DNA of 63,723 bases, counting the filler, from Octopus bimaculoides (lineage: Eukaryota): the NCBI RefSeq assembly GCF_001194135.2. It is 5 parts of 4 records of this genome, joined end to end, with 100 filler letters (N's around TTAATTAATTAA, not from the genome) between each part and the next. Parts side by side here need not be neighbours in the genome. Positions count along the whole stretch, not along the records: positions 1 to 17,223 come from NC_068993.1; positions 17,324 to 43,847 come from NC_068985.1; positions 43,948 to 53,870 come from NC_068982.1; 2 more parts are not named here. One strand, written 5' to 3'. Below are positions 12,164 to 44,048 of the stretch, one piece after another (positions within the stretch are counted from its first letter, which is position 1; the number at the start of each line of letters is the position of its first letter). The position numbers and the translations under genes are program-made. The notes under the pieces were generated by a model, which was not told the origin of the DNA, ran no database searches, and worked only from the letters and a program-made list of their open reading frames with translations.

Positions 12164-12263
12164 CTCTCTGAAGATGGAATATTCCGCTACTATATGGATA
12201 ACACTTCTTTGTTCGCTGAGAAAACCAACACGTGATTGTCTATTCTGGAAACAACTGTAAGAG
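12164..12263 (+). ncRNA. type I hammerhead ribozyme motif with a long loop II
   Basis: Stem I CUCU/AGAG; core CUGAAGA (12168-12174); stem II UGGAAUA/UAUUCUG around a 59-nt loop; GAAA (12248-12251); near-palindromic stem III ACAACUGU; GUA^ triad with predicted cut after 12259. Confidence 0.6.
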
Positions 12264-13212
12264 ACTGCCTTCACACCTCCTTAATCTCTTATTTCTTACG
12301 ATATATTTTATTCTCGTAAATTTACCGTAGCAACTCAGCAAATAGGTTTAGATATATAAATTCCATGTTCTAAACTGATATTAGTTGTTTGTCTATTCAT
12401 TTTTTTTTCTTTTTACTGTATATATATATATATATNNNNNNNNNNNNNNNNNNNNNNNNNNNNNNNNNNNNNNNNNNNNNNNNNNNNNNNNNNNNNNNNN
12501 NNNNNNNNNNNNNNNNNNNNNNNNNNNNNNNNNNNNNNNNNNNNNNNNNNNNNNNNNNNATATATATACCTACACATTGTCTGTAATCATGACTATCTCG
12601 ACGCCAGAAGTACGATAGCTTTTATGCAAACAACACACGAACAAGTTGAAACTTTCACGAAGTACAACACATACGCGAGTACATGCATGTAAACATACGT
12701 ACGTACATACATATATATATATATATATGAACATATGTATGCTCACGCTCACACGCGTACTCATGAAATGTCTACATACATACCACACTTTCATAGATGT
12801 GTGTAACTAAACCTCTAGTCTGTTTACGGATCTGAGAATACTGTATATCTCCACATAACATTGTTTACTTACACCAATCCATATAGGCATATATTGACAA
12901 CGGCACTTGTTGTTATTACTTGATAGAGTGCTTAAGTTACTGAAATACTTTTCCCTCTTGCTTAAATCGAAGCCAGCTGTTAAAGGAAGCCAGATGAAAT
13001 AAATAAATACAATATTACAATATTATAGCGTAGATGTGGACTGTTCCGTTTTGTTTTGTTTTTTTCTTTTTCTTCTTTTACAGCGAGAGGACAATTCATT
13101 GTTAAATAACTCTGATTGCCGCTTCATATTATTTATGTTATTTTTATTTTAGTCTTTCTAAATACTGTTGTAAAAAGTAAAATGCCCACTTACTGCTTCT
13201 CATAGACTCTTT

Positions 13213-13252
<40 letters not shown>

Positions 13253-13782
13253 TACATGTATGTATGTAAGTATGTATGTATGCATATATATATATATANN
13301 NNNNNNNNNNNNNNNNNNNNNNNNNNNNNNNNNNNNNNNNNNNNNNNNNNNNNNNNNNNNNNNNNNNNNNNNNNNNNNNNNNNNNNNNNNNNNNNNNNNN
13401 NNNNNNNNNNNNNNNNNNNNNNNNNNNNNNNNNNNNNNNNNNNNNNNNNNNNNNNNNNNNNNNNNNNNNNNNNNNNNNNNNNNNNNNNNNNNNNNNNNNN
13501 NNNNNNNNNNNNNNNNNNNNNNNNNNNNNNNNNNNNNNNNNNNNNNNNNNNNNNNNNNNNNNNNNNNNNNNNNNNNNNNNNNNNNNNNNNNNNNNNNNNN
13601 NNNNNNNNNNNNNNNNNNNNNNNNNNNNNNNNNNNNNNNNNNNNNNNNNNNNNNNNNNNNNNNNNNNNNNNNNNNNNNNNNNNNNNNNNNNNNNNNNNNN
13701 NNNNNNNNNNNNNNNNNNNNNNNNNNNNNNNNNNNNNNNNNNNNNNNNNNNNNNNNNNNNNNNNNNNNNNNNNNNNNNNNNN

Positions 13783-13844
<62 letters not shown>

Positions 13845-13881
13845 GGTGGGAACGCTAAGCAGTGACGTGTATAAATGCAGT

Positions 13882-14310
13882 GTTATTACAAGTTAAAATA
13901 TGTTTGTGGTACGTTGGAATTCGAAAAGCCATTCACTGTGTTTTGTCATGGAGAAAATTTCTCACTGTAGACTAATGATATAAATACAGCAAAATCAGCT
14001 TGCAGTGCCACCTACCCAGACTGTGACATGCAAGCGTTTCGGAGTGTTTCGCACAATGACTGAAAGAGCATAAGAGAGACAATCTCTCTTATCAGCTCGC
14101 AGCGCCGCCTGTCCGGTTTCTGTAACTTTAGAGGAGATAACCTCTCTAAAATGCTTGCATCTCACAGTCTGGGTAGATTGTGCTGCAAGCTGATTTTGGT
14201 GTATTTACACTATTTGTCTACAGCGAGAATTTCTCTGCATGGCAAGCAAACACAGTGAATAGCTTATTTACGAGTTCAAACGTGCCACAAGCATATTTGA
14301 ACTGCTAATA
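13882..14310. mobile_element. foldback element with ~160-bp imperfect inverted arms
   Basis: 13882-14039 is the reverse complement of about 14149-14310 at roughly 80% identity by eye (e.g. aaaatcagcttgcag/ctgcaagctgatttt, ctacccagactgtga/tcacagtctgggtag). Confidence 0.8.
14120..14167 (+). ncRNA. decayed type I hammerhead relic
   Basis: CUGUAA-CUUUAGA-GGAGA uaacc UCUCU-AAAA-UGCUUGCA-UC^-UCACAG. All three stems are recognisable, but the core is mutated (CUUUAGA, AAAA). The opposite arm retains CCGAAAC. Confidence 0.35.
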
Positions 14311-14345
14311 AAATTGCACACGCAGACACACATACATATATACCT

Positions 14346-14555
14346 TCTACTAAAGGCACAAGGCCTCAAATTTGTTGGGGGTGGACTAGCCGATTACAAC
14401 GACTACAGTGTTTCACAGGTACTTAATTTATCGACCTCGAAATGATGAAAGGCAAAGTCAACCTCGGCCGAATTTGAACTCAGAACGTAGCGGCAGACGA
14501 AATACCGCTAAGCATTTCGCCCGGTGTGCTAACGATTGTGCCAGCTCACTGCCTT
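14346..14555 (-). mobile_element. tRNA-derived SINE (family A)
   Basis: Reverse complement of the 6252 copy (gaatttgaactcagaacgtagcggcagacgaaataccgctaagcatttcgcccggtgtgctaacgattgtgccagctc). Confidence 0.8.
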
Positions 14556-14596
14556 GAGTAACAGTTTTGTGATGATTTTACAGATTTAGTAAAATT

Positions 14597-14633
<37 letters not shown>

Positions 14634-14885
14634 NNNNNNNNNNNNNNNNNNNNNNNNNNNNNNNNNNNNNNNNNNNNNNNNNNNNNNNNNNNNNNNNNNN
14701 NNNNNNNNNNNNNNNNNNNNNNNNNNNNNNNNNNNNNNNNNNNNNNNNNNNNNNNNNNNNNNNNNNNNNNNNNNNNNNNNNNNNNNNNNNNNNNNNNNNN
14801 NNNNNNNNNNNNNNNNNNNNNNNNNNNNNNNNNNNNNNNNNNNNNNNNNNNNNNNNNNNNNNNNNNNNNNNNNNNNNNNNNNNNN

Positions 14886-42231: not shown

Positions 42232-42265
<34 letters not shown>

Positions 42266-42266
<1 letters not shown>

Positions 42267-42828
42267 TATTCACAGACACGACAGAGTTGGGACCTATATA
42301 CCCTGGAAGCTATGTCAACACTATGGAATAACAACAGAAAAAAGATGGTATAGACACACGCCAGAAAAGGTCACACAATCGTGTGTATTGGCATATCCCA
42401 TACTCTGGGATATGCCAATACACACAGATAGAGAAATTAAGGCCAATAGGCTGGATATAGTTGTCAGAAATCACCAAGGAAAAAATGCTTTCTAATCGAT
42501 GTATCAATACCAACAGATGACAACGTTTCTCGAAAAGAAACGAAGTTTTCAAAATACAAAGATCTGGAAATAGAGGTAACTCGAATGTAGAGTCTAAAAA
42601 CAGAAACAATTCCTATCATAGTGGGCACATTAGGTATGATAAAGAAAAACATTCAGACAAATACATAACAAAAACACCAGAACTTACAAGTATATATAAC
42701 ACACAGAAAATAGTACTACTAGGCACCGCACAAATATGAACAACACAATAAACCACAGCACATACCCAAGACACACAGAGCTGCGCTTTGTAGTGCAGTG
42801 AATTTACGTGATAAAAATAAGACTACTG
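42266..42828 (+). mobile_element. 5'-truncated Dong/R4-clade LINE (REL endonuclease region plus 3' UTR), subfamily 1
   Basis: RHDRVGTYIPWKLCQHYGITTEKRWYRHTPEKVT, RPIGW(P)DIV, LIDVSIPTDDNVSRKE..SKYKDLEIEVTR. Flanked by (AGT)n and (AAT)n. Confidence 0.9.
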
Positions 42829-42844
42829 AATAATAATAATAATG

Positions 42845-43054
42845 ATTTCAATTTTTTGCCACAAAGGTAGCTTGCAGGAGGGGGTTAAGTCGATTACATC
42901 GACCTCGGTGTGGAACTGGTACTTATTTAATCGACCCCGAAAGGATGAACGGCAAAGTCGACCACGGCGGAATTTGAACTCAGAATATAAAGACAAACGA
43001 AATGCCATCTAAGCATTTTGCCCGGCGTGCTAACGATTCTGCCAACTCGCCGCC

Positions 43055-43056
<2 letters not shown>
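42845..43056 (-). mobile_element. family A SINE with (ATT)n tail, inserted in the (AAT)n tail of the Dong copy
   Basis: Head gccgcctt abuts (AAT)n at 43057; the tail end abuts aataataataat at about 42830. Confidence 0.8.
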
Positions 43057-43135
<79 letters not shown>

Positions 43136-43805
43136 NNNNNNNNNNNNNNNNNNNNNNNNNNNNNNNNNNNNNNNNNNNNNNNNNNNNNNNNNNNNNNNNN
43201 NNNNNNNNNNNNNNNNNNNNNNNNNNNNNNNNNNNNNNNNNNNNNNNNNNNNNNNNNNNNNNNNNNNNNNNNNNNNNNNNNNNNNNNNNNNNNNNNNNNN
43301 NNNNNNNNNNNNNNNNNNNNNNNNNNNNNNNNNNNNNNNNNNNNNNNNNNNNNNNNNNNNNTTGGTTTTCTTTATTGTAGATTTAGTGCACGTGCAAAAT
43401 TAAATTACAATATGTTGTATTATTATATTGTATAATATGCTATATTTTGCATTGTACGTAATTGTATTATATATGAATTGCATATGTTCTGTAAGTTTGA
43501 ATGTATGCGCTTTGGTGTATTGTCATGTGTGAATATATGTCTAAAACTCAAAAGTAAGTTATGGGAATACACGTGCGTATGGATGGGAGTACATAAAATG
43601 AATGAGTGAAAGTGGGTGAACATGAGTATGCGTGTTCAGTTATCTACATACGATATACATACCTTACGCATATATGACCGAAATATATGTGCGTGTGTGT
43701 ATATCCGTAAATATAGATGTACGTACATTTCTATATATAAATGAATACAGTATAACCTCGATTTACGAACGCCTCTGATCACGAATAAATCGTGCTTTAT
43801 ATTTA

Positions 43806-43836
<31 letters not shown>

Positions 43837-44013
43837 ATATATATATANNNNNNNNNNNNNNNNNNNNNNNNNNNNNNNNNNNNNNNNNNNNTTAATTAAT
43901 TAANNNNNNNNNNNNNNNNNNNNNNNNNNNNNNNNNNNNNNNNNNNNAAAACAACAAAGTGAGGACGTGATATGGATAGTATTATTGGACGCTCAGGAAA
44001 GGAAAGAGAGAGT

Positions 44014-44048
44014 GTATGACGTTTTGGGCGTAGCCCTTCGTCGGAAAG
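44014..44048 (-). ncRNA. decayed hammerhead motif
   Basis: CCGACGA-A-GGGC uac GCCC-AAA-ACGU-C^. Stem II and the ACGU palindrome are intact; U4C and G12A changes; stem I is lost. Confidence 0.45.

Follow-up and report, generated by a model that had tools for sequence, protein, structure and literature searches.

Introduction

Minimal type I hammerhead ribozymes occur in the pseudo-LTRs (pLTRs) of metazoan Penelope-like elements (PLEs), and further work on them was reportedly published by Lunse et al. in 2017. Insertion in vitro does not need cleavage, and the function of the PLE hammerheads is still debated. Their consensus has an extra base after A9, a G10.1-C11.1 pair, a palindromic stem III and a U-rich 5′ side (Cervera and de la Pena, 2014; PMC4209133). 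In Schistosoma, hammerhead pairs lie on opposite strands, 100–700 bp apart. Both inverted, 5′-truncated copies and (TA)n targets have been described for PLEs (PMC8557442). The anole Poseidon element PAc is an autonomous PLE whose ORF starts in stem II; copying is initiated internally, ∼90 bases past the cut, on uncleaved RNA, and ribozyme mutants still insert (Frangieh et al., 2024; PMC11167929). Non-LTR retrozymes are short, non-coding hammerhead repeats tied to the pLTRs of PLEs (Cervera and de la Pena, 2020, PMC7229834; bioRxiv 10.64898/2026.07.22.740005).

Here we analyze eight hammerhead motifs in a 63,723-nucleotide stretch of Octopus bimaculoides DNA (parts of assembly GCF_001194135.2 joined with filler; hereafter, the window). 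They likely belong to the already known PLE minimal hammerheads, of the kind described in 2014, as new members thereof, and share with them the type I order, the consensus features (G10.1-C11.1 in part of the motifs), the presence of many unrelated families per genome (mostly as solo copies), and close opposite-strand pairs; the skeleton of family 4 is the same as that of the Acropora Neptune motif (PMC4209133). In contrast to that set, two motifs here have a long loop II, family 5 has an extra G before GAAA, the families in the window have no linked ORF, and the apparent copy number of family 4 exceeds the 4,000–9,000 motifs per genome obtained there by different methods. Family 4 also carries U at core position 6 (U6), whereas the motifs of Figure S3 in that study, most of which had been retrieved by a descriptor requiring A6, all have A6 (56/56). 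Like PAc, whose copies reach ∼80–160 bases past the cut site, the elements in the window have more than one 3′ end, an AT-rich target, and RNA-seq reads that do not pile up at the cut site; in contrast to PAc, no ORF start was identified in them. Family 4 recalls the retrozymes in its few head-to-tail joints; the window differs from them in its lack of hammerhead-bearing tandem arrays over 11800–44300, its minimal rather than canonical ribozymes, and its low RNA share. An alteration at conserved core position 6 is also known from phage Bcep176 (A6C; PMC3088659, PMC7151607), although there the letter is C6 and belongs to one phage ribozyme, which reacts slowly in Mg2+ and regains activity in Mn2+, and here it is U6 in the putative ribozyme of a high-copy animal repeat.

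Results

The eight hammerhead-like motifs of the original prediction are all present where they had been placed, each coordinate marking the outer end of the type I stem I, and comparison within the window sorts them into five families, in agreement with the earlier estimate of about five (Table 1). Motifs are designated below by the position of C3. Family 4 comprises 25578 and 32668 (∼73% identity), which 44044 joins weakly (E 0.011–0.029), while 26587 and 26615 (94% identity) make up family 5. An additional candidate (35860) is present in a single copy in the window and has an extended, internally looped stem I; its fold z-score of -4.3 belongs to a stretch that was chosen for its pairing.

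Table 1. Hammerhead motifs and associated elements in the window.
Feature	Position	Strand	C3/H17	Remarks
Family 1 hammerhead	12164..12263	+	12168/12259	Perfect core, extra U after A9; stem II 6–7 bp, loop ∼60 bases; stem I 4 bp; stem III palindrome imperfect; microsatellites either side
Family 2 head-to-head inverted pair	13876..14318			Arms 13876–14049 / 14139–14318, 79% identity
Family 2 hammerhead, decayed	14120..14167	+	14126/14161	Three core changes
Family 3 element	17324..17793	-		Runs from 17734 to 17324, ended by assembly gap
Family 3 hammerhead	17420..17476	-	17472/17424	Perfect core; top-scoring motif; stem III a perfect 6-base palindrome; stem II 3 bp, 26-base loop; stem I 6 pairs including one mismatch
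Family 3, inverted copy of 3′ part	17735–17793			59 bases, 100% identity; locus adjoins N gap
Family 4 insertion	25453..25658	-		206 bases, 5′-truncated, high-copy family
Family 4 hammerhead	25547..25583	-	25578/25552	Core position 6 is U; one extra A; G10.1-C11.1 pair; stem II 4 bp; CG palindrome; stem I 5 bp; U-rich upstream side
Family 5 head-to-head inverted pair	26404..26799			Arms 26404–26590 / 26612–26799, 94% identity
Family 5 hammerhead, left copy	26550..26590	-	26587/26556	Perfect core; 5′ truncation within stem I; extra A ahead of stem II, extra G behind it
Family 5 hammerhead, right copy	26609..26653	+	26615/26647	Perfect core; stem I 6 bp; stem III palindrome imperfect; stem II weak
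Family 4 hammerhead, second subfamily	32637..32672	-	32668/32641	U6; one stem II pair broken
Additional candidate, unconfirmed	35838..35908	+		Decayed, hammerhead-like; one core change
Family 4 distant member, decayed	44013..44049	-	44044/44018	A6 retained; U4 and G12 altered; stem I broken

The core CUGANGA...GAAA...UH is intact in half of the motifs (12168, 17472, 26587, and 26615) and altered in the other half: 25578 and 32668 carry U6, which had not been flagged, 44044 has two changes, and 14126 has three. An extra base separates positions 9 and 10.1 in six of the eight (the exceptions are 17472 and 14126), the G10.1-C11.1 pair stands directly before GAAA in four (17472, 25578, 32668, and 44044), and both family 5 copies, along with 12168, have a further G ahead of GAAA. 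The short stem III is a perfect palindrome in four motifs and an imperfect one in four. Pairwise comparison, as opposed to a many-copy alignment, identifies one compensatory stem II pair (G-C for A-U) between 25578 and 44044, and single stem pairs are broken in 32668 and 26615. The label "minimal" fails on size for 12168 and 17472, because 72 and 32 bases, respectively, separate their core strands.

None of the eight motifs (0/8) passes a strict descriptor modeled on the 2014 consensus; 25578 does so with position 6 free, and 17472 with a long loop II allowed. Our first descriptor gives one perfect-core match, where 477 shuffles average 0.036, and one match when a single mismatch is allowed, against a shuffle mean of 1.04; motifs at the latter level are therefore not enriched. 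A scored scan, the score of which was tuned after the motifs had been seen, gives three matches at ≥18 (shuffle mean 0.07, with 0 of 366 shuffles reaching three) and seven at ≥12 (0.70 in shuffles), the seven including 41252 (later rejected), an alternative pairing beside 17472, and the new candidate 35860. Motifs 14126, 26615, 32668, and 44044 score below 10 and are supported by homology or by an inverted partner. No hammerhead is among the 150 of 195 Rfam matches listed for the window, or among those for three short regions, and the eight named motifs do not fold clearly better than shuffles, except for the decayed 44044 (z -2.3). The candidate 41252 (- strand), in a SINE-like repeat, was rejected because all seven other aligned copies of the repeat (7/7) lack the core, and candidates 33808 and 17502 were set aside for a low score or an alternative pairing.

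A search for inverted repeats (≥45 bases, within 1.5 kb) returned 11 matches, and the best three E-values belong to three hammerhead loci, such that three of the seven named loci have an inverted partner. In two of these pairs the arms begin at or within the ribozyme and both come from the same element, and in the left arm of the family 2 pair (13876–14049) GAAA is still intact. The pairs at the three loci match the 5′-inverted copies typical of PLEs. The perfect inversion in family 3 directly adjoins the assembly gap. In seven copies the element, with ends set by hand, terminates 83–160 bases beyond H17, which fits the internal initiation on uncleaved RNA of the anole PLE. Adjacency to (TA)n within the window counts for little, since the window is full of microsatellites.

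Evidence from DNA and RNA reads covers one of the five families, family 4. In organism A, the summed depth over 25450–25649 is 1.0–2.6 million, compared with 38.4 on the flank, and in organism B it is up to 1.4 million, compared with 32.3; as a rough figure, family 4 is ∼26,000–68,000 times as deep as the flank. One organism B contig skips 25453–25658, and this segment is likely an insertion with an empty orthologous site in a related species, as read from a single contig that has 46 letters on its short side and intervening letters that were not read. A flanking near-duplication (7/8; 25448–25455 and 25654–25661) is weak in DNA so rich in AT. The right flank, too, is a repeat. Family 4 has fixed 3′ ends that lead into (TA)n; in three of four runs, among the rows listed, the loose 3′ ends consist of (TA)n. 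The copy in the window stops where most reads ending there continue upstream, and a 14-base piece of this continuation has only chance matches in the window. Head-to-tail joints make up a tiny share of the depth: one (25655 to 25450) occurs in a DNA contig at depth 238, ∼6 times the flank, and in three RNA reads, and the other (25646 to 25452) occurs in six and four RNA reads. The share of family 4 in RNA is ∼29 times below its share in DNA, a rough figure from libraries that may miss circles, and RNA read ends from two RNA-seq runs (a weak test) show no cleavage pile-up. These data suggest that transcription of family 4 is passive. U6 is probably the majority state in the family.

No PLE ORF for a reverse transcriptase (RT) or GIY-YIG protein is recognized in the window at the sensitivity used, as had been stated before. 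Two RT fragments lie outside 12164..44048 and do not match PLE proteins, and the translated flanks of all hammerheads, inspected by eye, hold no recognizable PLE peptide. Used as a query for homologs, the RT fragment at 60937 retrieved 68 proteins, whose names are uninformative. A GIY-YIG tblastn match at 50980–51144 (E 0.008; best reversed-window control 0.14; profile i-E 0.1) was rejected because it has a stop and sits in a duplicated non-coding repeat. Beyond the window, the family 4 skeleton has 117 matches across 116 metagenome loci, and at 4 of the 116 a PLE RT/GIY-YIG ORF lies 120–680 bases upstream, always on the same strand (4/4); U6 occurs in 0 of the 117. The PLE link is one of architecture, because the window lacks a PLE ORF and its elements have no nucleotide match to the 116 loci. 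Motif scans of viral contigs (position 6 free) and of GTDB contigs (U6 only) returned nothing.

Discussion

We consider it probable that these are relic hammerheads in the 3′ ends of at least five PLE families, copied by a Penelope-type protein and inert as solo copies. The assignment to PLE termini, made in the original prediction, is well supported by the consensus features, the three inverted partners, the fixed 3′ ends with (TA)n beyond them, and the occurrence of the family 4 skeleton behind PLE ORFs in other animals. The further proposal, that the elements are non-autonomous and mobilized in trans, may hold, but family 4 continues upstream of the window copy in most reads that end there, and 5′-truncated copies of longer elements therefore fit equally well.

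Under the PLE explanation, the motifs would sit in the PLE 3′ end, comprised of a pseudo-LTR plus a tail, and copying would probably be the work of a reverse transcriptase/GIY-YIG protein of the Penelope type whose gene lies elsewhere, acting on RNA from a full PLE or from a short non-autonomous derivative. The protein may nick AT-rich or (TA)n DNA and begin reverse transcription 80–160 bases downstream of the ribozyme site, with the RNA uncleaved; an early stop of synthesis would yield short, 5′-truncated copies, sometimes with an inverted copy added on their 5′ side. With a palindromic stem III this short, a ribozyme would have to dimerize in tandem transcripts, or be helped by a protein, in order to cut, and solo copies are probably inert. 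The U6 family likely spread carrying a weakened ribozyme.

The least credible alternative, which can nearly be dismissed, takes most of the motifs for accidental matches within AT-rich DNA. It draws on the one-mismatch descriptor, on the four motifs under the score threshold, and on the post hoc tuning of the score; against it, no shuffle matches the high-score count, homologous copies repeat the motifs, the three best inverted repeats carry them, and the family 4 motif lies inside a discrete high-copy insertion. For families 3, 4, and 5, chance is already refuted to a large extent; it may still account for 12168, 14126, and 35860. SINEs or MITE-like DNA elements without PLE kinship, in which the likeness to a hammerhead was captured or is incidental and terminal inverted repeats make up the inverted pairs, are also very improbable. 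The families do lack a linked PLE ORF, and other SINE-like repeats are plentiful in the window, one of which gave the convincing false hammerhead at 41252; however, the core order and palindromic stem III are common to five unrelated families, in two of the three pairs the arms, which start at or inside the ribozyme and come from one element, are unlike short terminal repeats, and it is the skeleton of family 4 that occurs behind PLE ORFs.

An origin as non-LTR retrozymes is somewhat less remote, though still unlikely. Short non-coding units from tandem arrays would self-cleave, circularize, and be reinserted through rolling-circle reverse transcription, leaving solo monomers in the window. 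The head-to-tail joints of family 4 and a unit size of ∼220 bases fit such a cycle, and retrozyme families may be mostly monomers and pLTR-derived (bioRxiv 10.64898/2026.07.22.740005). Yet the interval 11800–44300 has no hammerhead-bearing tandem array, the joints are rare, and the deficit of family 4 in RNA points the other way. In type, the motifs correspond to the minimal hammerheads of PLEs and not to the canonical ones of retrozymes (PMC7229834): no canonical type I hammerhead with loop-loop contacts is among the Rfam matches listed, and stem I is extended only in 35860. Target-primed copying better fits the fixed 3′ ends and the 5′ inversions.

The main value of these motifs is for annotation, as they allow several unlabeled repeats of an animal genome to be classed as PLE tails, and all eight escape the standard scans (Rfam, among the matches listed, and the strict descriptor). 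The only lead beyond known biology is the U6 core. We tentatively raise the possibility, with more doubt than confidence, that family 4 is a Penelope-derived element whose copy number rose into the tens of thousands in two related species while its hammerhead had U in place of the conserved A6. If so, it would either show, as a natural example on the scale of a genome, that PLE-type mobilization in vivo needs no ribozyme cleavage, or represent an undescribed active core variant that is protein-assisted, dimeric, or metal-selective. Given a family so successful with a core that is likely damaged, the function of the PLE hammerhead would become testable through comparison of U6 and A6 subfamilies for age, copy number, and cleavage.

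Hammerhead Motifs and Their Families

The eight hammerhead motifs of the original prediction are all present in the window sequence, each having been placed by the outer end of its stem I, and they group into five families, about the number expected. The window is AT-rich (GC 0.33 over all letters, 6,096 of them N), with abundant microsatellites and dispersed repeats across it. The description as minimal type I holds in part: the motifs exist, but every one of the eight departs from the textbook minimal form, through a long loop II, an extra G before GAAA, U at core position 6 (U6) or decay. 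A strict descriptor modeled on the 2014 consensus passes none of them; it does find 25578 when any base is accepted at position 6, and 17472 when a long loop is tolerated (motifs are named by the position of C3). No hammerhead occurs among 150 of the 195 Rfam rows listed for the window, nor in three short regions searched.

Features of the window, with hammerheads placed by their C3 position
Feature	Position	Strand	Observation
Hammerhead, family 1	12168		all conserved core letters kept; long loop II
Hammerhead, family 2	14126		decayed core
Hammerhead, family 3	17472		all conserved core letters kept; long loop II
Hammerhead, family 4	25578		U6
Hammerhead, family 4	32668		U6
Hammerhead, family 4	44044		decayed core; A6; distant copy
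Hammerhead, family 5	26587		all conserved core letters kept; extra G before GAAA
Hammerhead, family 5	26615		all conserved core letters kept; extra G before GAAA
Ninth hammerhead-like motif	35838-35908	+	one core change; single copy in window; long stem I with internal loop, resembling canonical type I ribozymes
Inverted pair, family 5	26404-26799		
Inverted pair, family 2	13876-14318		
Inverted pair, family 3	17324-17793		
Junction of family 2 arms	14050-14120		small perfect hairpin; minus-strand core-like heptamer at 14095
Inverted repeat	33871-34167		93 bases, 76%; no credible hammerhead
Inverted repeat	11706-11758		53-base hairpin; no credible hammerhead
Second repeat	25670-25795		lower copy (depth about 1,000-12,000); directly adjoins family 4 insertion
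Tandem repeat	50875-51352		non-coding, duplicated (87%, about 230 bases); seemingly with short inverted ends, MITE-like by eye
RT fragment	53537-53869	+	Pfam RVT_1, E 1.8e-10
RT fragment	60937-61596	+	Pfam RVT_1, E 7.2e-7
12-base palindrome	17268-17279		amid N runs
12-base palindrome	43892-43903		amid N runs; identical to the former

A first descriptor gave one match with a perfect core vs 0.036 per shuffle, and one with a single mismatch vs 1.04 per shuffle (477 shuffles). A scored scan, tuned after the motifs had been seen and with a floor above four of the eight named motifs, gave three matches at a score of at least 18 vs 0.07 expected, a level reached in none of 366 shuffles. The scan match at 41252 was rejected as a chance resemblance inside an abundant repeat. 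Structural context and homology are stronger arguments than these shuffle statistics.

Probable Relationship to Penelope-Like Elements

We consider it quite probable that the five families are relics of Penelope-like elements (PLEs), whose minimal hammerheads are of a kind already known since 2014. The proposal that they mark PLE termini is supported through architecture, namely inverted partners and the occurrence of the family 4 skeleton behind PLE ORFs in other organisms. The best three of 11 inverted matches (at least 45 bases, within 1.5 kb) are hammerhead loci. In the family 5 and family 2 loci the paired element copies face outward, beginning at or within the ribozyme. In the assembled sequence of the family 3 locus, which adjoins a gap, an identical 59-base inverted copy of the element's 3' part lies at its 5' side. 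Inverted copies truncated at the 5' end are a described PLE hallmark (PMC8557442), and hammerhead pairs on opposite strands are known from Schistosoma and a bracovirus PLE (PMC4209133). No tandem array bearing a hammerhead was found in 11800-44300. The junction between the family 2 arms may hold a third partial copy. The 12-base palindrome is probably assembly gap filler, and the gaps holding it interrupt two hammerhead elements.

With positions 6 and 7 free, the family 4 skeleton has 117 matches in 116 metagenome loci, with A at position 6 in 113, C in three, G in one and U in none; many are copies of one family, and six (three C6, three A6), in or like microbial coding sequence, are probably chance. 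None of the 116 loci aligns with the window elements, and they therefore derive from other organisms. In four of the 116, many of which are short-flanked, a same-strand PLE ORF precedes the motif by 120-680 bases. These four (L006, L022, L023 and L058) are animal PLE copies that combine RT/GIY-YIG ORFs with A6 minimal hammerheads; they come from metagenome assemblies and are probably host DNA.

The reported lack of an RT or GIY-YIG ORF is borne out for PLEs at the sensitivity of the search, as the window has no credible match to 32 PLE proteins or to a profile built from them (the best, at E 0.008, was rejected). Two RT fragments lie outside the span of the prediction. Neither fragment matches the 32 PLE proteins, and both are likely LINEs. 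As no linked ORF is present in the window, the PLE link of the five families rests on architecture.

The window comes from a large, presumably animal genome, and its repeats look octopus-like. If that affinity holds, two cephalopod counts bear on it: Octopus vulgaris has 31 recently active Penelope-like families in a report whose main text lacks the word ribozyme (PMC13282606), and 235 Rfam hammerhead loci were counted in the giant squid (PMC6962438).

The U6 Core and Abundance of Family 4

The U6 family is the main point of interest beyond the known PLE minimal hammerheads. Literature titles on hammerheads with A6U or U6 cores, or on octopus, contain no such family; Lunse et al. 2017, reportedly on PLE hammerhead variants, may cover it. 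The two U6 window copies share only 73% identity, and U6 also occurs in a loose-end consensus of 13 contigs. No variant at position 25575 is among 40 of the 83 variant rows listed, where the lowest share is about 50%; if rows were kept by share, each of the four runs carries A6 only as a minority. Run X1 has three A>T rows outside those 40, of which one may be 25575. The Fig. S3 motifs of PMC4209133 have A6 in 56 of 56, largely by descriptor design. Changes at position 6 reduce hammerhead activity, A6C in one ribozyme at 0.3 mM Mg2+ lowering the rate from 0.3 to 3.6e-6 per minute (PMC7151607, PMC3088659).

Reads were mapped on 25050-25795 at 80% likeness, using contigs of two related organisms (A and B) together with a pair of RNA runs from organism A (contigs of the genome's runs total about 2,000-2,400 million letters). 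In organism A, depth is 1.0-2.6 million over 25450-25649 vs 38.4 on the flank, a ratio of 26,000-68,000, and in organism B the ratio reaches 44,000; the depth ratio is not copy number and is read only as an abundance in the tens of thousands. In organism B, a single-copy contig matches the left flank at ~95% identity and then jumps from 25452 to 25659; it is likely the empty site of a 206-base family 4 insertion, which is bordered by a 7/8 near-duplication. Loose ends on the element's 3' side run into (TA)n in three of the four runs among the rows listed, starting from two positions separated by 17 bases. On its 5' side, the majority of loose reads (509 and 672), like contigs from the two species, extend into related sequence, which shows the window copy to be 5'-truncated; this continuation is visible for 30 letters, too short for an ORF to be seen.

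Head-to-tail joints occur in small numbers: a single DNA contig, with a depth of 238, contains one, and joints appear in 3, 6 and 4 RNA reads. RNA reads fall about equally on both strands, 72-74% pass into other sequence, and the RNA share of family 4 is roughly 29 times lower than its DNA share, a pattern that fits passive transcription. There is no pile-up of read ends anywhere in the two RNA runs, which is a weak test for cleavage or circles.

Proposed Mechanism and Activity of Solo Copies

Both sides of the cut site are kept in every copy, and seven copies whose 3' ends were set by hand run on for 83-160 bases past it. In the anole PLE, the ORF begins at stem II and reverse transcription 111-118 bases into it, ribozyme mutants still insert, the ribozyme cuts only with its protein, and RNA-seq is without ends at the cut site (PMC11167929). 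Like this element, the window copies extend beyond the cut site and the RNA runs lack an end pile-up. The kept flanks and the anole behavior together point to target priming, by which a PLE protein would copy uncleaved RNA; copying would terminate early, with 5' inversion now and then.

Solo copies are probably inert, since monomers of minimal hammerheads failed to cleave in vitro (PMC4209133) and the 25578 monomer is predicted to misfold. In its predicted fold the two core strands pair together (pairing probability 0.78-0.97), an arrangement favored over the hammerhead fold by 2.4 kcal/mol.
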